Source of the DNA: Promethearchaeota archaeon
GTDB taxonomy: Archaea > Asgardarchaeota > Heimdallarchaeia > Hodarchaeales > Hodarchaeaceae
DNA length: 64,000 bases
Assembly: GCA_048938105.1 (NCBI GenBank)
Contig: JBHLMN010000010.1
Location: 64,001-128,000 of the forward strand
Direction of reading: 5' to 3'
The first letter of the stretch is position 1. The number at the start of each line of letters is the position of its first letter. The notes beneath the pieces were generated by a model. That model was not told the origin of the DNA. It did not search any database and worked only from the letters and a program-made list of their open reading frames with translations. Shown here one piece after another: positions 1,494 to 10,268 of this stretch. The position numbers were made by a program, and so were the translations under genes.

Positions 1494-3011
1494 TCAGATT
1501 GGCCAATTTGCAGTTGCCATTAAATCCAATAAAAGTGCTGGAAATACTCCAAGTAGTAATGTAAAGAAACATAGAAATCCAAAGACGGCATATTGAGACC
1601 AGTGTGATATATCGTGCACATGTTCTAATTCAGGATTGACATCACCAAATACTGTCCTTTGTAACAACCATAAATAATATGCTGCGGTAAAAATAATCCC
1701 GAGGACTCCAATGAAAGCTAATCCTCTGCCAAATTCACCCCAATTGAACAAAGCAACAAAAGCAAGCAATTCAGACCAAAATCCAGCTAAACCTGGTAAG
1801 CCAGCACTAGCAAACGATCCATAAACCATGACTCCCGCAGTCACAGGCATATTCTTAGCTATCCCTTTAAGTTTGGGTATATCTCGAGTGTGTGCAGCAT
1901 GTCCAATAGTACCAGCAACAAAGAACATTAGGGGAGAGATGATTCCATGGGCAATTTGCATGTACATTGCACCAGCGAATCCTATAGGGGATTGAGTTGC
2001 ACATCCAAGAAGAACAATTCCCATGTGGCCAACTGACGAATAAGCAACAAGACTTTTCATATCAACTTGACGAAGAGCTACCCAAGCCCCATATAATAAT
2101 GAAATCAATCCAATAATAGCAACTAACCAGGCAAACTCTGATAAAGCATCAGGTAAGAACCAACCACCCATTCTCAACAGGCCATAACCACCCATTTTCA
2201 GGAGTAATCCAGCAAGAATCATTGAACCTGGTGTTGGAGCTTCAACGTGAGCTAAGGGTAACCAAGTATGGAATGGAACGCTGGGTACTTTCACTATAAA
2301 ACCAAATAATAAGGCTAGAAAGATCAATAGAACAAATGGCTCTGCTCCAAATTGGTCAGCCATATTAGTTAACTCAGTAAATGAAAAAGTGCCAATACCT
2401 GTTCCAGTATATTTTGATGATTCTAACCAAAGACCTATTATACCTAAAATCATGACTAAAGACGCAACATGTGTATAAATAAAGAAGTATAATGCTGCAT
2501 ATTCCTTTTTAGGACCACCCCAAATCCCGATGAGGAAAAACATTGGAACCAAGACTAATTCCCAAGCAACATAAAATATGATGAAATCTGTTGCAAGAAA
2601 TGTTCCAATGAGGCCTGTTTCAAGAAGCATTATCATTGCATAATATGCGGGTTCTCTCTCATGAATTTCTTTGAATGAAGCCAGGACTGCTACTAAGAAT
2701 ACAAACCCACTTAATAAAACCAATGGTAAGCTTAATCCATCAACTCCTAGCGAATAACTCATTCCAATAGCTTCAATCCAAGGAATTTCTTCTATTAAAT
2801 CCCAACTACCAGTAGGAGGTTGTTCATACATCATTAAGGCTATAATGGCTAAAACCATGACAACAGCACTGATGATAAATGCAAACCACTTTGAAAGCTC
2901 ATTACGGACACGTCCTACTAACCATGTTGGAAATGCTGCCAAAATTGGAAGTAAGAAGATCAGAGATAGTATTCCGATATTGAGATCACCAAAACTTAAT
3001 TGTGTCAACAT
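1494..3011 (-). CDS. nuoM: Complex I-like subunit M
   Basis: LGVDGLS, FYVAWELVLVPMFFLIGIWGG, VKVPSVPFHTWLPLAHVEAPT, LLKMGGYG, AYSSVGHMG motifs. Confidence 0.96.
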   Translation of the reverse strand: MLTQLSFGDLNIGILSLIFLLPILAAFPTWLVGRVRNELSKWFAFIISAVVMVLAIIALMMYEQPPTGSWDLIEEIPWIEAIGMSYSLGVDGLSLPLVLLSGFVFLVAVLASFKEIHEREPAYYAMIMLLETGLIGTFLATDFIIFYVAWELVLVPMFFLIGIWGGPKKEYAALYFFIYTHVASLVMILGIIGLWLESSKYTGTGIGTFSFTELTNMADQFGAEPFVLLIFLALLFGFIVKVPSVPFHTWLPLAHVEAPTPGSMILAGLLLKMGGYGLLRMGGWFLPDALSEFAWLVAIIGLISLLYGAWVALRQVDMKSLVAYSSVGHMGIVLLGCATQSPIGFAGAMYMQIAHGIISPLMFFVAGTIGHAAHTRDIPKLKGIAKNMPVTAGVMVYGSFASAGLPGLAGFWSELLAFVALFNWGEFGRGLAFIGVLGIIFTAAYYLWLLQRTVFGDVNPELEHVHDISHWSQYAVFGFLCFFTLLLGVFPALLLDLMATANWPI

Positions 3012-3044
3012 TTGTCTTCAACCTTTATTCTTTTTTTCCTTCTT

Positions 3045-3266
3045 TTAGAGGGGTATCACCCCTGCTACAATAATCGCAATTAATATAAGAGAAACCGCCC
3101 CTAATAGAGTATAGAGAGCATAATTTTCTACTACTCCTGTTTGTATTCGACGTAAATAACCCCCTGTTTTCATAACTCCTTTAGCTGAGTTTCGAATAAT
3201 ACCATGATCAATTACTTTTTCTAGAATTCGTTGAATACCTCTAGCAAATATTGTTGATTCAGACAT
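3045..3266 (-). CDS. Stand-alone NuoL C-terminal segment (end of lateral amphipathic helix plus terminal TM helix)
   Basis: IDHGII...GGYLRRIQTGVVENYALYTLLGAVSLIL matches the NuoL C-terminal pattern (D.ivng....g..l...QtG....Y). It occupies the nuoL position between nuoK and nuoM and has its own ATG and purine-rich leader. Confidence 0.8.
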   Translation of the reverse strand: MSESTIFARGIQRILEKVIDHGIIRNSAKGVMKTGGYLRRIQTGVVENYALYTLLGAVSLILIAIIVAGVIPL

Positions 3267-3281
3267 GAGTAATTCTTCCTT

Positions 3282-3596
3282 CTAACCTTTAAGTTCAACA
3301 AAATCTGTAGCATCTATTGTCCCGTGTGTTCGAAAGATCGATAAAATTATCCCAAGGCCAACGGCTGCCTCCGCTGCTGCCAATGCAATGCTGATAATAA
3401 CAGCCACATGCCCAGTGACAAAAGTAACATCATTATATAATGCAAAAATGGCAAAATTAATGTTAGCAGAGTTTATCATAATTTCAATTGATATCAACAT
3501 TCGTACTGCTGATTGAGACTTAATGAACCCTGCGAAACCAATCAAGAATAAAATAAGGGCAATTCCAACAAAAATCCAAGCATCTAAGTCAATCAT
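3282..3596 (-). CDS. nuoK: Complex I-like subunit K
   Basis: MLISIEIMINSANINF and ALAAAEAAVGLGI motifs. Confidence 0.95.
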   Translation of the reverse strand: MIDLDAWIFVGIALILFLIGFAGFIKSQSAVRMLISIEIMINSANINFAIFALYNDVTFVTGHVAVIISIALAAAEAAVGLGIILSIFRTHGTIDATDFVELKG

Positions 3597-4156
3597 ATAT
3601 CTTCTACCTCTTTTTTAACTAGATAAACACTACCAAGCATTGCTGCAAGTAAAAGGAATCCTAACACTAATATTGTCCCCCCATGAACCGTGAATAACAT
3701 CTCAGCCACATCTCCTATTAGATCTATTTCACTAGGTTTGTTGGTCGGATTTTGCCTCAGGTTTTGCCAAAATATAGGACTGACTTGTGAAAGTACAAAA
3801 AGTGCGATGATAAGTAGAATAAATCCCCCCGCAAAACTTAATCGCCAATCTAATAATTTCAAACCTTTTTGTTCCTCGTACATGGCTTCTTTTCCCGAAA
3901 GAGTAATCGCAAAAACAATTAACACAGTGATTCCTCCAGCATATACAATCATCTGAATAACTAAGAGAAGAGATGACTCAGCATATAGCAAAAAAATCAT
4001 GGCAACCCCCAATAAGGTGAATACTAGCCAGAGTACTGCATGGTAGACACTTTTAACTGTAACGGCTAAGAATGCAGAACCTATAGTATATCCAATTAAT
4101 ATAAAGAAAAATAATAATTCTAGAGTTTGAAATAACTCGTTAGGAATTAAAGTCAT
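3593..4156 (-). CDS. nuoJ: Complex I-like subunit J
   Basis: QMIVYAGGITVLIVFAITL motif; position in operon. Confidence 0.93.
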   Translation of the reverse strand: MTLIPNELFQTLELLFFFILIGYTIGSAFLAVTVKSVYHAVLWLVFTLLGVAMIFLLYAESSLLLVIQMIVYAGGITVLIVFAITLSGKEAMYEEQKGLKLLDWRLSFAGGFILLIIALFVLSQVSPIFWQNLRQNPTNKPSEIDLIGDVAEMLFTVHGGTILVLGFLLLAAMLGSVYLVKKEVEDI

Positions 4157-4785
4157 TTTAAATCATCCTCTTCCTTATTCTTAGAAGTTAAAAACTCCCC
4201 AATTGATTTTCCATATGTTTCTACATACTCTTGTTGTTGTAATTCATGTTCTTTGGGGTAATATAACTTATAAACATCGTATAAATCTAAATAAGTGTAA
4301 TATAATTCTTCTTTATTTGAAGTAGCCCCATCAAATCCAGCTGAATGATGTAAAGCTTCATACCTACACGCTTCGACACAAAAGCCACAATACATACATC
4401 GTCCGATAAATATCTGAGGAGATTCTAATGGCCTCTTCTTTTCCCAGTGAGGTGGTTGAGGATCTAGTAGCTTCATTTCTATGCATTTATTGGGACAAGC
4501 TCTTTCACAGGCTTTACAACCAGTGCAATTCATAAGATTTAAAGCTATTAATCCACGAAAATTAGGCGAAATATGGGGAGTGTGACTGAAAACGTCCGAA
4601 AGGGATAGATCTCTATCTAAAACTGTTTGTCCTTTTTTAGCGAGTTCTTTTGGAAAATAAATTGTATTTTTGTTTCTACGGTCACCATCAGGTATAGTAA
4701 TTGGTTTTTTTAAGAAGACATGTCGGAAGATATAAGCCAACGGACGCGTAATAAATAAATTTGGGATATAACGAAAATTTACCAT
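4153..4785 (-). CDS. nuoI: Complex I-like subunit I (2x[4Fe-4S])
   Basis: FRG, CTGCKACERACP, GRCMYCGFCVEAC. Confidence 0.93.
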   Translation of the reverse strand: MVNFRYIPNLFITRPLAYIFRHVFLKKPITIPDGDRRNKNTIYFPKELAKKGQTVLDRDLSLSDVFSHTPHISPNFRGLIALNLMNCTGCKACERACPNKCIEMKLLDPQPPHWEKKRPLESPQIFIGRCMYCGFCVEACRYEALHHSAGFDGATSNKEELYYTYLDLYDVYKLYYPKEHELQQQEYVETYGKSIGEFLTSKNKEEDDLK

Positions 4786-5955
4786 TTAAGAAATCGCTCC
4801 GAAAAATTGGGGATAGTACAGCATAACGAATACAATATAGACTATATTTAGAATTGCTAGCGGAATTAATCCCTTCCATCCAATATCTAGTAACTGGTCT
4901 GGTCTTACCCTTGGTAATGAAGCACGTACCCAGATATACAAGAAAGCGAATACCCACAACTTCACTAAAATAATCATAAAAGCAAGAAGATGAATTGTCT
5001 CAATTTCAGACTTAAAGAGATTAAAAGGTAAATAAGGCCCTCCCCAAAAGAGAAAGACCCCTATAAATGCCCCGATCAAGAGGATAAAATATTCAGTCGC
5101 CATAGACATCATATATCGAAAACCAGTAAGTTCAGTTCGCCAACCCATAACTAATTCTGCCTCAGCTTCAGGAATATCAAATGGAACTCTCTCTGTTTCT
5201 GCTGTTAATGCAGCCATGAAGACAAAAAATCCTATAGGCATCAGAATAGCAAAAGGAAAAAGTAGATCAGATTGTTGTTTAGAAATTTCAATAAATGAGA
5301 AAGAGTTGGTCACTAATACGACAGATGCAATAGAGAGCATCAGTGGAATCTCGTAACTAATCATTTGAACAGCTGATCGAAATCCTCCTATGAGAGAATA
5401 TTTATTGTTTGAAGACCATCCTGTGATAAGTACACCAACAGGATATAAAGAAAAAAGAGCAAATATGAGTAAGAAACCTACAGCAGGATCAGCAACTACC
5501 AAAGATGCCCCTAAGGGTAGTAATGCCCCTAGTATGAATGGAGGAGCTACTATGAATGCAAAAAACCCAACATTAAAAGGAAATTTGTCTGCTTTTTCGG
5601 GTACAATATCTTCCTTGGAGAAAAATTTCAGGAACTCGGCAATATTCTGTAATAATCCAAATTTCCATGTTCTGCCGAAGATATGACCATAGTTAAAATC
5701 GATAAAGACTGGTCCTCGTGCTGTCCAAGCCCTTCCTGACGAAATCTTTCTTTCTAACCAGATTAACATAATTGTATTGACAATTAAAAATACAAGGATA
5801 GTTGTCATTTCCAGTGAATCGATTAAAAATGATCTTATTGGGCCTACCTGTTCGTCGGGAATAAGTCCGAAATCAAGTAAAATTGGTACGATCCCTGGCC
5901 AGAAATCCAAGCCATCAACAAGCCAATCATATAAACCATAACCCATAATCTTCAC
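4786..5955 (-). CDS. nuoH: Complex I-like subunit H (start probably ATG 5946)
   Basis: WLERK, GWSSNNKYSLIGGFRSAVQMISYE, ETERVPFDIPEAEAELV, RASLPRVRPDQL. Confidence 0.96.
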   Translation of the reverse strand: MKIMGYGLYDWLVDGLDFWPGIVPILLDFGLIPDEQVGPIRSFLIDSLEMTTILVFLIVNTIMLIWLERKISSGRAWTARGPVFIDFNYGHIFGRTWKFGLLQNIAEFLKFFSKEDIVPEKADKFPFNVGFFAFIVAPPFILGALLPLGASLVVADPAVGFLLIFALFSLYPVGVLITGWSSNNKYSLIGGFRSAVQMISYEIPLMLSIASVVLVTNSFSFIEISKQQSDLLFPFAILMPIGFFVFMAALTAETERVPFDIPEAEAELVMGWRTELTGFRYMMSMATEYFILLIGAFIGVFLFWGGPYLPFNLFKSEIETIHLLAFMIILVKLWVFAFLYIWVRASLPRVRPDQLLDIGWKGLIPLAILNIVYIVFVMLYYPQFFGAIS

Positions 5956-7062
5956 CTATCGGTCTATTTCTCCCATGCAAAGGTCTATACTTGCAACAGT
6001 AGGAGCTATATCTGCCACTTTAGCCCCTTTAAGAATATAATTACATATTGCTAAATTGGAATAAGCAGGAGATTTTATCTTCACGCGATAAGGAACTTGA
6101 TCGTCATTCCCAATAATGTAAAAAGCACCTTCTCCACGGGGATCTTCTGTTCGAAAGTAAACATCCCCGTTAGGTAACTTTCGAGGAGGTTTTTGGTATA
6201 TTTCCCCTTCCGAAGGTATTTGATCGAGTGCCTGCCGAATTATCCTAATAGATTGAAACATCTCTTCCATTCGAATCTCATATCGAGCATAGCAATCTCC
6301 AGCAGTACGCACCGGAATATCAAATTCAAGTTCATCATATACTAAATATGGTTCAATCTTCCGTATATCAGCCTGAATTCCTGAAGCACGTAAAACAGGA
6401 CCAGTAACACCAAGATTTAACGCGTCATTTTTAGTTATGATTCCCACTTTCTCACTCCGGAGCATAAACACCTTTGAGTCATCCAAGATAGCCCGATATT
6501 CCTTTAATCGTTCTTCAAGATAATGAGTGAGATTGTAACAGTCTTCTTTGAATCCATGTGGTAGATCACCACGTAATCCCCCTGCAGTGAAGTAATTATA
6601 CATCATTCGGGAACCAGTAACATGTTCTAAGAGATCTAATACGTATTCTCTTTCCCGATATGCGATAACTAACATGGTTACTACTCCGACATCAGTAGAA
6701 TAAGCTGAAAGCCAGGTCAAGTGAGAAGCAATTCGTTGAAGTTCTAACATGATTGTACGAATATATTGAGCCCGTTTACTCACCACAACTCCCATTAACT
6801 TCTCAACAGCCATAGTATAACTAGCCTCCCAACTCATCGCTGAAACGTAACAGAGGCGGTTTGTTAAGGGTTGAAAAGCATTATAGGGACGTGACTCGGC
6901 AATTTTTTCAATCATCCTAAAAACATAACCAATTAACACCTCTGCATCAATTACAAGTTCACCTGCAGTCTTTACTTTCAAAGTCCACAAGCCATGATTT
7001 ACTGGGTGCTGAGGGCCCATATGGATGTACATCTGTTCACTCATGATAATTATAACTCCCAT
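5956..7062 (-). CDS. nuoD: Complex I-like subunit D (start probably the internal Met of MSEQ)
   Basis: MGPQHP..HG, ELQRIASHL, GDCYARY..RMEEM.QS, EDPRGE, C-terminal DLCMGEIDR. No CxxC pairs, so not a NiFe hydrogenase. Confidence 0.95.
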   Translation of the reverse strand: MGVIIIMSEQMYIHMGPQHPVNHGLWTLKVKTAGELVIDAEVLIGYVFRMIEKIAESRPYNAFQPLTNRLCYVSAMSWEASYTMAVEKLMGVVVSKRAQYIRTIMLELQRIASHLTWLSAYSTDVGVVTMLVIAYREREYVLDLLEHVTGSRMMYNYFTAGGLRGDLPHGFKEDCYNLTHYLEERLKEYRAILDDSKVFMLRSEKVGIITKNDALNLGVTGPVLRASGIQADIRKIEPYLVYDELEFDIPVRTAGDCYARYEIRMEEMFQSIRIIRQALDQIPSEGEIYQKPPRKLPNGDVYFRTEDPRGEGAFYIIGNDDQVPYRVKIKSPAYSNLAICNYILKGAKVADIAPTVASIDLCMGEIDR

Positions 7063-7571
7063 TATTTAGGATGAGGTTTGAAAGAAAAAGGTTTTTCAGG
7101 TAATTGATAATTACGGCGCATGGGATGCAGTTCTGAAATGTGTTTATGCTCATAATCATCCCATTCTTCAGGAAGAAGTAACCGTTTTAAATTCGGATGA
7201 TTTTTTATGTTTATTCCAAAAAGATCAAACAGTTCTCGTTCGTGCCAATTTGCAGATTCCCATATAGGAGTTATTGTTGGGATGGCTGGGTTTTCTCGGT
7301 CACTAACCTTGACATGAACTTGTAAAACTGTTGGATCACCATCCCATCTATCAATATGGTAGACTACCTCAAAATATGTTTCATAATCTACTCCTGAAAT
7401 CGCTTCTAAGGATGTAAATTTTAACTCTGAAGCAATATATCTCATAATATCTACCAAATCATCTACAGGGATTTGTAACCGAATACGATGAGACTCAGAT
7501 ATTTCTGCTATTGATAATTTTGTATCAAATCTCTCTTTCAATTGTTTTAGATGATTCTCTGTAACAGACAT
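7062..7571 (-). CDS. nuoC: Complex I-like subunit C
   Basis: ANWHERELFDLFGI...HPNLKRLLLP...HPMRR. Confidence 0.95.
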   Translation of the reverse strand: MSVTENHLKQLKERFDTKLSIAEISESHRIRLQIPVDDLVDIMRYIASELKFTSLEAISGVDYETYFEVVYHIDRWDGDPTVLQVHVKVSDRENPAIPTITPIWESANWHERELFDLFGINIKNHPNLKRLLLPEEWDDYEHKHISELHPMRRNYQLPEKPFSFKPHPK

Positions 7572-8269
7572 TATTTTGCCTCTTTTAATAGCTTTTTACG
7601 ACGTAATCGTAAATCAATCATTGGGGGATCCCGTTCATAAAATTCTCTAGGCTCCTCAAGCAATGGTTCAGGTATGAAAACTCCGTCTGATCTTATTTTT
7701 TCTTGGAGGCGATGTATCCCAGCCCACATGGCCTCTGGACGAGGAGGACATCCAGGAACATATACATCTACTGGAATTACCTGATCTGCACCTTCTAGAA
7801 TGGTCGGTGCCTGCCAGAATGGTCCTCCAGAAATTGCGCATTCACCAGTCGCTAAAACCCATTTAGGAGCTGGCATTTGATCGTAGACATCCCGAAGGCG
7901 GGGAATGAATTTTATACTTACAGGACCATTAAGCCATAATAGATCACAATGCCTAGGGCTAGCTCGAGCTAAAATTCCAATCCGTTGAGTATCATAGCGA
8001 CTAGCCATTGTTGCACCCATTTCTATGGCACAACATTTCATTCCAATATATACAGGATAAAGGCTACATCTCTGAGCCCAATTACGAAGCCAATTGATCA
8101 TAACAGTTACAAAATTTCGTGAATGTGCTAAGACTACATTAGGCATTGGTTCATAAATCTCTAATTCTCCCAGCTCTTCACATTCCTTCTTGATTCCCCA
8201 GGTTTTTTGACGTGATGTATGGAAATATGATTTTAATCGATCCATTTTCGACATAATTCTTACACCCAC
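7571..8269 (-). CDS. nuoB: Complex I-like subunit B
   Basis: CCAIE tandem Cys, RASPRHCD, QMPAPKWV...GECA..GG, PVDVYVPGCPPRPE. Confidence 0.96.
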   Translation of the reverse strand: MGVRIMSKMDRLKSYFHTSRQKTWGIKKECEELGELEIYEPMPNVVLAHSRNFVTVMINWLRNWAQRCSLYPVYIGMKCCAIEMGATMASRYDTQRIGILARASPRHCDLLWLNGPVSIKFIPRLRDVYDQMPAPKWVLATGECAISGGPFWQAPTILEGADQVIPVDVYVPGCPPRPEAMWAGIHRLQEKIRSDGVFIPEPLLEEPREFYERDPPMIDLRLRRKKLLKEAK

Positions 8270-8721
8270 TTCATTGTTCCTTTTTTCATCCAGAAGAACA
8301 ACCCAATTAAGATAAATGAGGCAAATACAGCCATAATAAAAATTACAGAATATAATATTTGAATAGAATATTCTTCTTTAATGATTTGGAAAGCATAAGC
8401 CCAGAGGAGAAAGAAAATGGTTAAGATATCAAAAAGCACAAATACGACTGCAAAGGTAAAGAATTGAGCATTGAATCGAACTTGGGCATCTCCAATTGGT
8501 TTCTCTCCGCACTCATAAGTCGTAGTTGCCGCTTTTAAGCGTGGAATATTGGGTGCCAAAAGATATTGTACAATCTTAATGACAATAGGACTTGCGAGCC
8601 CTGCTACAAGAAAGATTCCAAAATGAGTTAGTTGAAGATCAATCATGTGATATCCCATCATTGAATATGTTTTTCTTTCAGGTTGGAGTACATCGGGGCA
8701 CTGAATTATGATAATCCGCAA
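8260..8721 (-). CDS. nuoA: Complex I-like subunit A (true start likely a downstream Met)
   Basis: TYECGEKPIG, FFTFAVVFVLFDI, C-terminal KKGTMKW. Confidence 0.93.
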   Translation of the reverse strand: MRIIIIQCPDVLQPERKTYSMMGYHMIDLQLTHFGIFLVAGLASPIVIKIVQYLLAPNIPRLKAATTTYECGEKPIGDAQVRFNAQFFTFAVVFVLFDILTIFFLLWAYAFQIIKEEYSIQILYSVIFIMAVFASFILIGLFFWMKKGTMKWV

Positions 8722-8795: not shown

Positions 8796-10268
8796 TTGAT
8801 AAAAAAGCCTGTTGTGGTTTTAAGGGTGAAGATTCTATTCCTTGTTCCACCTACAAAACAAAAGGAAGTAACAAAGTATCAACTTGCCTTTTTAAATTTT
8901 ACAGCACCACCTTTAGGGTTGGGATATATTGCTGCTGTGTTAGAAGAAAATGGTTTTTCTAAAGTTCGAATATTAGATTGCTCCGTCTTAGAGTATTCAC
9001 CTCAAACCTATCGTAAGTATTTGAAGCAATATAATCCAGATATCGTTGGAATTCAAACACTTACACCTAATCTTTACAATGCTCTAAACTCAGCTCAAAT
9101 TGCAAAAAAAGAGGGTGTTCCAATCGTCGCTCTGGGAGGATATCATCCTACAGCAATGCCAACGGAAAGTTTACAATTATCTCATGGTAATGTTGATGTT
9201 GTTTTCAGGGGAGAAGCTGAATACTCTATGTTAGAATTTGTCCAAAATATTGACAAAGGTCGTGATTGGACACAAATCAAAGGTATTTCCTATTTTAACA
9301 AAGACAATCAAGTTATTCACAATAAACCAGCTCCTCCCATAAAAAACCTAGATGACCTTCCGTTACCAGCGCGTCATCTACTTCCAATGGACAAGTACCG
9401 AATTTTTGGATCATCTTTTCCAGCAACTTCGGTTATAACTAGCCGAGGGTGCCCTTTCTCTTGTGATTTTTGCAGTGTTTCAGCATTCTATGGGGCTAAG
9501 TGGCGCCCTCGCTCACCCGAGAAAATTGCTGAAGAAATCCGCTTTTTACGAGAAACTATGGATATAAAAGCAACAGCGTTCGTAGATGACTTATTTTTTA
9601 TCTCAAAAAAAAGAGTAAGAAGATTAGTTAGTGCACTCTCAAAAATCAAAGATATCTATTGGGGTGCAACGACTCGTGCTGATGTAGGGGAACTTGAATT
9701 ACTCACCCTAATGAGAAAAGCAGGCTGTCGCTTAGTTTTTGTAGGTGTCGAATCTGGGAGTCAAACAATTTTAGACCAAATACGAAAACGGACCACTATC
9801 AATCAAGTGGAACGATATTTTGATAACGCTAAGAAAGCACATATGGACACATTGGCTTCATTATCATTTGGATTTCCTGGTGAAACTAAACAAACGATCA
9901 TCAATACAGTTACTTGGGTTATTAATCGGTTAGATCCTGAATTGGCATTATTCACTCTAGCAACCCCTTATCCTGGCACAGAATTCTATCAAAAGATGTT
10001 AAACAAAGGTATGATAAAAGAACATGATTATAGCAAATATAATCTCTTTCATCCTATTACTGAAATTACCGGTATATCACGAGAAGAAATGAAAATCATG
10101 ACGAAATGGGCATATAAACAATTCTATCTACGGCCAAACAAAATTATCCAAAATACATTAAGGGAATTAAGATATTCTATGGAGAGTTATGGTTTCAGGC
10201 AATTTCTTTACAATAGTAGTGTATTTGCGAAAGGAATTATCAATATGAGGATTTTAACTTCAATGTAA
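8796..10268 (+). CDS. Cobalamin-binding radical SAM protein (class B-like); start probably GTG 8826
   Basis: PPLGLGYIAA and GGYHPT B12-binding domain; SRGCPFSCDFC motif; GVESG; ATPYPGT. Confidence 0.9.
   Translation: MIKKPVVVLRVKILFLVPPTKQKEVTKYQLAFLNFTAPPLGLGYIAAVLEENGFSKVRILDCSVLEYSPQTYRKYLKQYNPDIVGIQTLTPNLYNALNSAQIAKKEGVPIVALGGYHPTAMPTESLQLSHGNVDVVFRGEAEYSMLEFVQNIDKGRDWTQIKGISYFNKDNQVIHNKPAPPIKNLDDLPLPARHLLPMDKYRIFGSSFPATSVITSRGCPFSCDFCSVSAFYGAKWRPRSPEKIAEEIRFLRETMDIKATAFVDDLFFISKKRVRRLVSALSKIKDIYWGATTRADVGELELLTLMRKAGCRLVFVGVESGSQTILDQIRKRTTINQVERYFDNAKKAHMDTLASLSFGFPGETKQTIINTVTWVINRLDPELALFTLATPYPGTEFYQKMLNKGMIKEHDYSKYNLFHPITEITGISREEMKIMTKWAYKQFYLRPNKIIQNTLRELRYSMESYGFRQFLYNSSVFAKGIINMRILTSM

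Follow-up and report, generated by a model that had tools for sequence, protein, structure and literature searches.

Gene content of the nuoL position

The window, by which we mean the whole 64,000-nucleotide stretch analyzed here (positions 64,001 to 128,000 of contig JBHLMN010000010.1, assembly GCA_048938105.1), begins with a complex I operon on the minus strand. Assignments with Pfam and NCBIfam give the gene order nuoA-B-C-D-H-I-J-K-(73-residue ORF)-M-N, with short or overlapping junctions between the genes. At the upstream end, nuoA (8260-8721), nuoB (7571-8269), nuoC (7062-7571) and nuoD (5956-7062) were assigned from their ORFs and translations, and the same order of these four genes (5956-8721) is found, with Pfam labels, in the relative L106. 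They are followed by nuoH (4786-5955, PF00146), nuoI (4153-4785, 4Fe-4S dicluster domains), nuoJ (3593-4156, PF00499) and nuoK (3282-3596, PF00420 and NF004322). A radical-SAM-like ORF of 490 aa (8796-10268, plus strand) is transcribed divergently from nuoA.

At the downstream end lie nuoM (1494-3011, 505 aa) and nuoN (1-1457), the 3' end of which extends beyond the window start; the complete nuoN ORF, of 516 aa, is found at L016:9907-11457 of the same genome. The possibility that one of these two large genes is a hidden NuoL-type pump was ruled out, since they are a true NuoM (TIGR01972, 481 bits against a cut-off of 264) and a true NuoN (TIGR01770, 345 bits). After nuoN follows a gene of the geranylgeranyl reductase family (L016:8628-9974, minus strand), whose position is kept in all congeners.

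Between nuoK and nuoM, where nuoL would be expected, there is an ORF of only 73 codons (3045-3266, minus strand, stop codon at 3045-3047). Its own ATG lies 15 nt after the nuoK stop (spacer 3267-3281), and 33 nt (3012-3044) separate its end from the start of nuoM. This layout, and the statement that the product matches the NuoL C terminus only, had been proposed in a first-pass annotation of this DNA, and both were borne out by the ORF listing and the profile matches. Against the NuoL family model (TIGR01974/PRK06590) the product scores 23 bits, with a cut-off of 556, and aligns exclusively to positions 552-612 of 615 (PRK06590, E value of 2.6e-5). It also matches positions 612-665 of 669 of FpoL (E value of 3.2e-5) and residues 587-625 of 629 of the solved mycobacterial NuoL (8e9g_L, E value of 0.015). 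Identity amounts to 87-93% with the NuoL C termini of the closest congeners, and to 78% (E value of 5e-28) and 68% with those of two full-length NuoLs of the same genome, termed L2 and L1 below. Judged by these alignments, the likeness is far beyond chance. The hydropathy profile shows a hydrophilic to amphipathic part (residues 1-47) and a hydrophobic transmembrane (TM) stretch (residues 49-71).

A Pfam search with the 73-residue product returned no domain, and both PF00361 (Proton_antipo_M) and PF00662 are absent. The product lacks the antiporter core of NuoL with its TM5 Glu, TM7 Lys and TM12 Lys. Because these core domains were tested and found absent, the ORF is, by its sequence, a NuoL fragment and no member of the NuoL family in the functional sense.

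The assembly at 3000-3300, which the first-pass annotation had wished to see verified, is sound. The entire ORF and both its neighbors are bridged by Logan contigs from two samples with 0 differences, and a contig from another study, on mangrove, covers both of the deletion junctions described below with 4 differences in 339 nt. These independent contigs rule out a misassembly at this site.

Origin of the short gene from the resident nuoL

The intact 746-aa nuoL of the sister genome G003 (L056) served as the reference for reconstructing the event. The window aligns to it as three collinear blocks of 89-93% identity, comprising the nuoK end, the spacer and codons 1-3 (93%), 14 codons of the helix just before the lateral helix (90%), and the last 56 codons together with the stop and 9 nt beyond (89% at the nucleotide level). 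The blocks are separated by two gaps, both in frame. Deletion 1, of 1776 nt or 592 codons, removed codons 4 to about 595, corresponding to the antiporter body with TM1-15 and the linker, whereas deletion 2, of 243 nt or 81 codons, removed three units of about 26 aa each from the lateral helix (HL). On this alignment, the 73-codon gene is the organism's own complex I nuoL minus two exact in-frame deletions.

What has been left of the gene can be assigned almost base by base. Positions 3258-3281 hold the native translation start of nuoL, namely the 15-nt spacer with an AGGAAG Shine-Dalgarno-like motif and codons 1-3 (MSE). The 14 pre-helix codons (STIFARGIQRILEK), located between the two deletions at 3216-3257, match bases 1821-1862 of the G003 stretch that begins 35 nt upstream of its nuoL start. 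The remaining 56 codons (3048-3215) encode the last HL unit of about 26 aa (VIDHG...QTG), TM16 and a tail ending in GVxPL. The first-pass annotation had stated that no remnant of the antiporter body is present, and the reconstruction agrees, as the body is wholly gone and the 56 C-terminal codons are preceded by just 3 start codons and 14 pre-helix codons. The GVxPL tail is found in nearly all resident NuoLs and in all intact short genes (it is cut short in G005 and lost in the frameshifted L106), and it is absent from L1 and L2. Unit D of this genome does not deviate from the consensus of the intact genes.

The ends of both deletions show microhomology of 1-5 nt. The 5-nt microhomology GGGTA, which lies in homologous repeat units at both ends, is seen in deletion 2 of this genome alone. 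The idea that the clustering of 3' junctions reported below is due entirely to a repeat-mediated deletion hotspot was rejected, since repeats occur solely at this deletion. The 5' ends of the other deletion events lie in the N-terminal region.

The nuoL position in related genomes

The GTDB family of this genome (G000) consists of a single genus with 21 genomes. The first-pass annotation took the reduced NuoL as a feature that intact genes in close relatives would call into question, and such genes are the rule: an uninterrupted resident nuoL encoding 745-775 aa is found at the same position in 15 congeners, with the order nuoK, nuoL, nuoM, nuoN and geranylgeranyl-reductase-like gene. Four more loci (G006, G007, G013 and L017) also have the resident nuoL, in a form broken up by one in-frame stop, by a gap in the scaffold or by the end of a contig. 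In the 21 genomes, the nuoL slot is occupied by a short ORF only twice, in G000 and G014.

The resident NuoLs of this genus have a lateral helix composed of tandem units of about 26 aa with the pattern x-D/E-E-x-V-I/V-D-G...Y-x-L-C (columns about 690-800 of alignment A2; residues about 613-724 of L2, L014:4352-6601). The NuoL profile matches one such unit twice, so the NuoLs of the genus are about two units longer than the canonical NuoL, though the operon encodes only three pumps. An AlphaFold2 model of L2, built from an alignment of 19 rows, had a mean pLDDT of 62 with values below 50 for residues 612-740, and its continuous helix of 84 residues is therefore unusable for measuring the length of the clamp.

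In G014 and in the metagenome relative L019, the first 14 nuoL codons are fused to the same C-terminal part. These two share one junction, which differs from the junctions of G000. In a tree of concatenated NuoJ, K, M and N, G000 is the sister of G003 (support of 99) and G014 the sister of G009 (support of 100); G003 and G009 both possess an intact nuoL. A clade of G000 and G014 was rejected by the AU test (p of 4.7e-34). Since both the tree and this test separate the two genomes, the sequences indicate that nuoL was reduced at least twice, independently.

A third remnant form is present in GCA_048883125.1 (L106:5359-5721, 120 aa), in which about 66 N-terminal codons are fused at the same 3' point. 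This assembly is labelled Thorarchaeota, yet its nuo genes are of the Hodarchaeaceae type. The L106 remnant is degenerate: numerous residues that are invariant elsewhere have been replaced, the reading frame has shifted, the TM16 tail is lost and the dN/dS is elevated to 0.3-0.4. Even so, its ORF opens with the native start, and its stop lies some 20 nt short of nuoM. The ORFs of G000, G014 and L019 contain neither a frameshift nor a premature stop, all of their deletions being in frame; L106 alone is frameshifted. The 3' junctions of the three remnant forms fall within 9 nt of each other, at the start of the last helix unit.

Several observations concern other nuoL loci of this group. An in-frame TAA is located inside the resident nuoL of G006, on a contig of Ca. 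Hodarchaeum mangrovi (L070:5205-5207), and of L020 (118-120). The two codons belong to different clades, are one codon apart and immediately precede the ILEKGY motif, where the pump body with its linker borders on the lateral helix. They reflect either a natural split into a body ORF and a helix/TM16 ORF or sequencing errors; L1 and L2 were not found among the contigs searched of G006. The breaks in contigs L017 and L018 likewise coincide with this boundary of body and lateral helix. Nucleotide identity between G014 (L059) and L019 is mosaic, with 95-98% for nuoJ and nuoK, 91-94% for the short gene and 73-93%, in blocks, for nuoM and nuoN, a pattern that indicates recombination within the operon among Hodarchaeaceae lineages.

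Some candidates for further short or split genes were discarded. The stand-alone calls P0006 (116 aa) and P0005 (78 aa) are contig-edge artefacts of longer genes, and P0066 and P0068, considered as split genes, are N-terminally cut and otherwise intact NuoLs. P0002 is located on a 995-bp ENA scaffold (L104:1-995) that combines a phage capsid gene (PF05065), a piece resembling the N terminus of ThrRS, the 3' end of nuoL and the start of nuoM; the scaffold is probably a chimeric assembly and possibly a rearrangement, and P0002 was left out of the analysis.

Two complete nuoL genes in an unlinked cassette

The assembly of this genome comprises 5.85 Mb in 65 contigs and is 99% complete with 7.25% contamination. 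It contains six PF00361 genes, namely nuoM and nuoN of the operon described above, an L-like and an M-like gene on contig C4, and two tandem nuoL genes on contig C50. The C4 genes are part of a second complex I-like operon (L015:5294-13492) with B, a fused CD, H, I, a split J, K, L (656 aa) and an M-like gene (510 aa), preceded by a malic enzyme gene and a NifX/MrpORP-like ORF.

The genes on C50 are L1 (L014:1747-3915, 722 aa) and L2 (L014:4352-6601, 749 aa). They are thus the full-length nuoL genes that the first-pass annotation had said would speak against its reading if a whole-genome search detected them. Both proteins score above the TIGR01974 cut-off, and each possesses its own HL and TM16. 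They share 69% identity, and L1 corresponds to L2 minus exactly one HL unit of 26 residues. The pump motifs FWEIMG, GKSAQFPLHVWLPDAM, NHGxFKALLFL and FFSKDAI are found unchanged in every resident NuoL as well as in L1 and L2. The two genes are preceded by a gene for a P-type H+-ATPase and a 124-aa soluble ORF of no known family, an arrangement, termed here the cassette, that is the same in G000 and G014. In G014, a gene for an ArsR-type regulator lies before the ATPase gene, with a ClC channel gene following.

In the genomes checked, the cassette goes together with the loss of the resident NuoL body. Among the 21 genomes, L1 and L2 are present only in G000 and G014, the same two that carry the short gene. 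The assembly with the third remnant, GCA_048883125.1, holds a gene of the L1 type (L107:1074-3242) that is 86% identical to L1 of G000, with no L2 adjoining. The cassette, represented in the third assembly by the L1-type gene, was found in all three remnant genomes that could be checked. A search of the 17 genomes whose resident nuoL is present, whole or interrupted, did not find it in any.

NuoL phylogeny places L1 and L2 together in one clade (support of 97), nested among the resident NuoLs of the genus, and the duplication is older than the split between the G000 and G014 copies. The cassette DNA of these two genomes is 85-92% identical, as against 78-82% for the genes downstream of it in G000, which lie on another contig in G014. 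The cassette ATPase is missing in G003, G012 and G009. Because the cassette is more alike than the downstream genes and its ATPase is missing in these relatives, the data suggest that it moved horizontally within the genus.

C50 most likely belongs to the same organism as the operon. In GC content and tetranucleotide profile it agrees with the bin, and, with 92% identity to G003, the downstream flank of the cassette resembles the nuo operon. It is highly improbable that the finding is an artefact, be it a misassembled deletion or the co-binning of C50 from another organism. The contamination value mentioned above and a genome larger than those of the congeners would be compatible with an artefact; it is contradicted by the contigs that bridge the ORF or its junctions in two samples and a third study, by the composition and flank of C50, and by the independent combination of remnant and cassette in G014 and GCA_048883125.1.

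The first-pass annotation had proposed a short-arm complex with two antiporter subunits and a lower H+/e- ratio, or else a split NuoL whose body is encoded elsewhere. Of the second proposal, the part that places a pump body elsewhere in the genome holds. The genes found there are complete NuoLs with their own HL and TM16, so the short gene is the remnant of a third, resident copy and not one half of a split gene. The first proposal is unsupported in view of the two intact paralogues and of a cassette that tracks the loss of the body. It would leave NuoM and NuoN as the sole pumps, held by a 73-residue clamp and moving fewer H+ per electron pair, with L1 and L2 serving, for example, the neighboring P-type ATPase or a separate antiporter. 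We consider this improbable. In its favor, L1 and L2 are unlinked to the operon, the short gene is apparently under purifying selection, E. coli complex I without NuoL still works (Steimle et al. 2011, as cited in PMC7447434), and shorter membrane arms occur in complex I-like enzymes of other Heimdallarchaeia (bioRxiv 10.1101/2024.07.04.601786). L1 and L2, however, fall inside the NuoL clade of the genus and have retained HL, TM16 and all pump motifs. There are no genes for MrpB-G or DabA partners beside them, and their strict co-occurrence with the remnant would be unexplained if the two were unrelated. Furthermore, we know of no function for a NuoL-type subunit alone, which also counts against this alternative.

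The sequence data make it most likely that the two full-length copies supply the missing proton pump, and the complex would then not be a short arm with two pumps. Docking of L1 and/or L2 is the simplest reading because the other nuo genes are conserved and intact, the motifs have been kept and the body has been lost only where the cassette is present. Convergent changes in NuoM, NuoN, NuoK and NuoJ of the two cassette genomes, as compared to their sisters, numbered 0, 1, 1 and 2 sites, respectively, as against 0-4 in controls, and are uninformative on this point.

Is the remnant peptide functional?

The odds that the remnant functions as an anchor are about even. Several features argue for a working peptide, namely the in-frame nature of the deletions, the native start, the dN/dS value, the clustering of the 3' junctions and the retention of GVxPL. 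The short genes of G014 and L019, which diverged after the deletion, have a dN/dS of 0.205, a value at odds with neutral evolution (dN/dS of about 1); 10 of their 23 changes are nonsynonymous, as compared to 75% expected (binomial p of 0.0014), although a test on just 23 differences in a region of mosaic divergence has low power. In intact genes the same segment has a dN/dS of 0.05-0.15, so that the value for the short gene (0.2) is two to three times higher.

Structure prediction of the 73-residue product with NuoN, NuoK and NuoJ gave weak support, with a score of 0.60 and 0.00 for the best of 3 controls. Among 80 solved complexes the mark for a pass is reached by 58, and among 110 mismatched pairs by 2; scores up to 0.60 comprise 7 of the 80 solved complexes and both passing mismatches, and passes in this range are more often wrong than right. 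The prediction runs agreed in at least 92% of the contacts, and the pLDDT of the partner was at least 70. This pass may come from the memory of solved complex I structures.

Alternatively, nuoL may have been deleted down after L1 and L2 had taken over, leaving an idle peptide. The remnant would then be a functionless relic, or a spacer for translational coupling, in which efficient translation of nuoM requires that ribosomes which have initiated at the former nuoL start finish near that of nuoM. This explanation appears doubtful, and the evidence on it is divided. In L106 the remnant has been frameshifted, has degenerated and has lost its TM16 tail, and because of this the peptide is dispensable in at least one lineage. 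The native start and the stop shortly before nuoM have nevertheless been kept there, a layout as would be expected if selection acts on translation across the spacer and not on the peptide. Selection for coupling would equally be expected to yield in-frame deletions, and the higher dN/dS of the short gene relative to the intact genes points in the same direction. The G000 deletion may also be recent, the only diverged copy seen differing by about 1%, and in that case its intact short gene says little about selection. Coupling, however, predicts neither the synonymous excess between G014 and L019 nor the clustering of three junctions at the start of the last helix unit, and unit D of G000 equals the consensus sequence of the intact genes.

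Proposed course of events and its relevance

It can be stated with high confidence that the short gene is a remnant of the resident nuoL and that this nuoL has been replaced by L1 and L2. For the whole account, which adds that L1 and L2 act in trans and that the remnant serves as a TM16 anchor peptide, we estimate a probability of roughly 60%. According to this account, two in-frame deletions cut the resident nuoL down to its start, 14 codons, the last helix unit and TM16, and the loss would have been tolerated owing to a separate locus with the intact tandem genes L1 and L2. L1 and/or L2 would dock on NuoM in trans and form the distal proton pump. The remnant is probably still translated from its native signals and, in what is the weakest part of the account, this small membrane peptide would fill the docking site for the resident TM16 and helix end on NuoN. 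The anchors of the cassette NuoLs would have drifted from the resident type: TM16 of L2 is less conserved than the L2 body (64% versus 89%), whereas in the clade of G003, G009 and G011 conservation of the resident TM16 equals or exceeds that of the body. A point against the account is that the TM16 segments of L1 and L2 themselves would compete for the same site.

An extension of this account, which we regard as unlikely, is a modular distal end. The resident TM16 and helix end would then form a plug on NuoN, with L1 and L2 being swapped or stacked on NuoM. The two paralogues, whose lateral helices differ by a single 26-aa unit of about the width of one subunit, would in this way alter the number of pumps. 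Equally tentative is the idea that the in-frame stops of G006 and L020, as independent splits of nuoL between body and helix, would be earlier steps in the separation of the clamp from the pump.

Among archaeal orders, the Hodarchaeales are the one considered nearest to eukaryotes, and their capacity for respiration is a matter of debate. If complex I were annotated solely on the basis of this operon, the genome would be mistaken for one that lacks NuoL or has a short-armed complex. The preferred reading, replacement of the resident nuoL by L1 and L2, would amount to a natural experiment in which, on at least two independent occasions, a nuoL1-nuoL2 cassette that moves horizontally took over from the NuoL pump body, and the clamp end of the former subunit stayed in frame. 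If the remnant peptide is functional, the anchor role of TM16 would be separable from the pump, a question that has so far been addressed only by engineered E. coli truncations. If it is not, the locus would be a clean case of stepwise gene decay after replacement by a paralogue.

Comparison with known systems

The literature searched contained no earlier description of a clamp-end remnant in combination with a NuoL pair encoded in trans. The closest counterpart of the short gene is the C-terminal module of NuoL/ND5/Nqo12, composed of HL and TM16. The 73-residue product is homologous to its last helix unit and TM16, including the QTG...Y motif, and its gene shares with nuoL the slot between nuoK and nuoM. 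Unlike NuoL, it lacks the antiporter body of 14-15 TM segments and three of the four helix units and is encoded as an ORF of its own, and complete NuoL copies are encoded elsewhere in the same genome.

In the MBH of Pyrococcus, a separate small subunit, MbhI, reportedly carries a lateral helix and a TM anchor (Yu et al. 2018). The first-pass annotation had drawn an analogy to this subunit, and it holds as far as a small gene, an amphipathic helix and one TM segment are concerned; the same layout, a small amphipathic helix and one TM segment beside antiporter-like subunits, is seen in the MrpA C-terminal domain/MrpB. The analogy does not extend to the sequence, as a profile search of PDB chains returned NuoL C termini, no match to MbhI and, as other weak hits, two matches to an unrelated RNA 2'-phosphotransferase (E values of 0.09-0.11). 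As far as the sequence search shows, the likeness is one of architecture alone. The short gene further differs from MbhI in that it arose by recent deletion within one genus and is not an ancient separate gene, and in that its helix is one unit long. By analogy, a separately encoded helix and anchor that work in the manner of MbhI are possible.

Two pump genes of the L type that stand in for a single NuoL, as proposed here, are also known from other complexes. [quoted passage not shown] Manganitrophaceae, NuoL is replaced by two MrpD-like subunits, and the 2M complex I of Nitrospira has an HL insertion of 26 aa (PMC9040806). The difference of 26 aa between L1 and L2 equals the HL step length reported for these systems (PMC9040806). 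Their extra subunits are MrpD-like or NuoM-like and encoded in the operon, whereas L1 and L2 are true NuoL paralogues encoded at an unlinked site. Moreover, L1 and L2 would replace the resident gene rather than add to it, and the operon retains a remnant of its former nuoL.

A final parallel is provided by E. coli complex I, which without NuoL or without TM15-16 was reported to translocate 2 H+ per 2 e- (Steimle et al. 2011, as cited in PMC7447434). As summarized there, the enzyme assembles and works without the NuoL body or the clamp, at a lower stoichiometry (PMC7447434). These mutants are laboratory constructs with no replacement paralogues, whereas in the present case nature removed the body of the resident NuoL and left the opposite piece, its clamp end.
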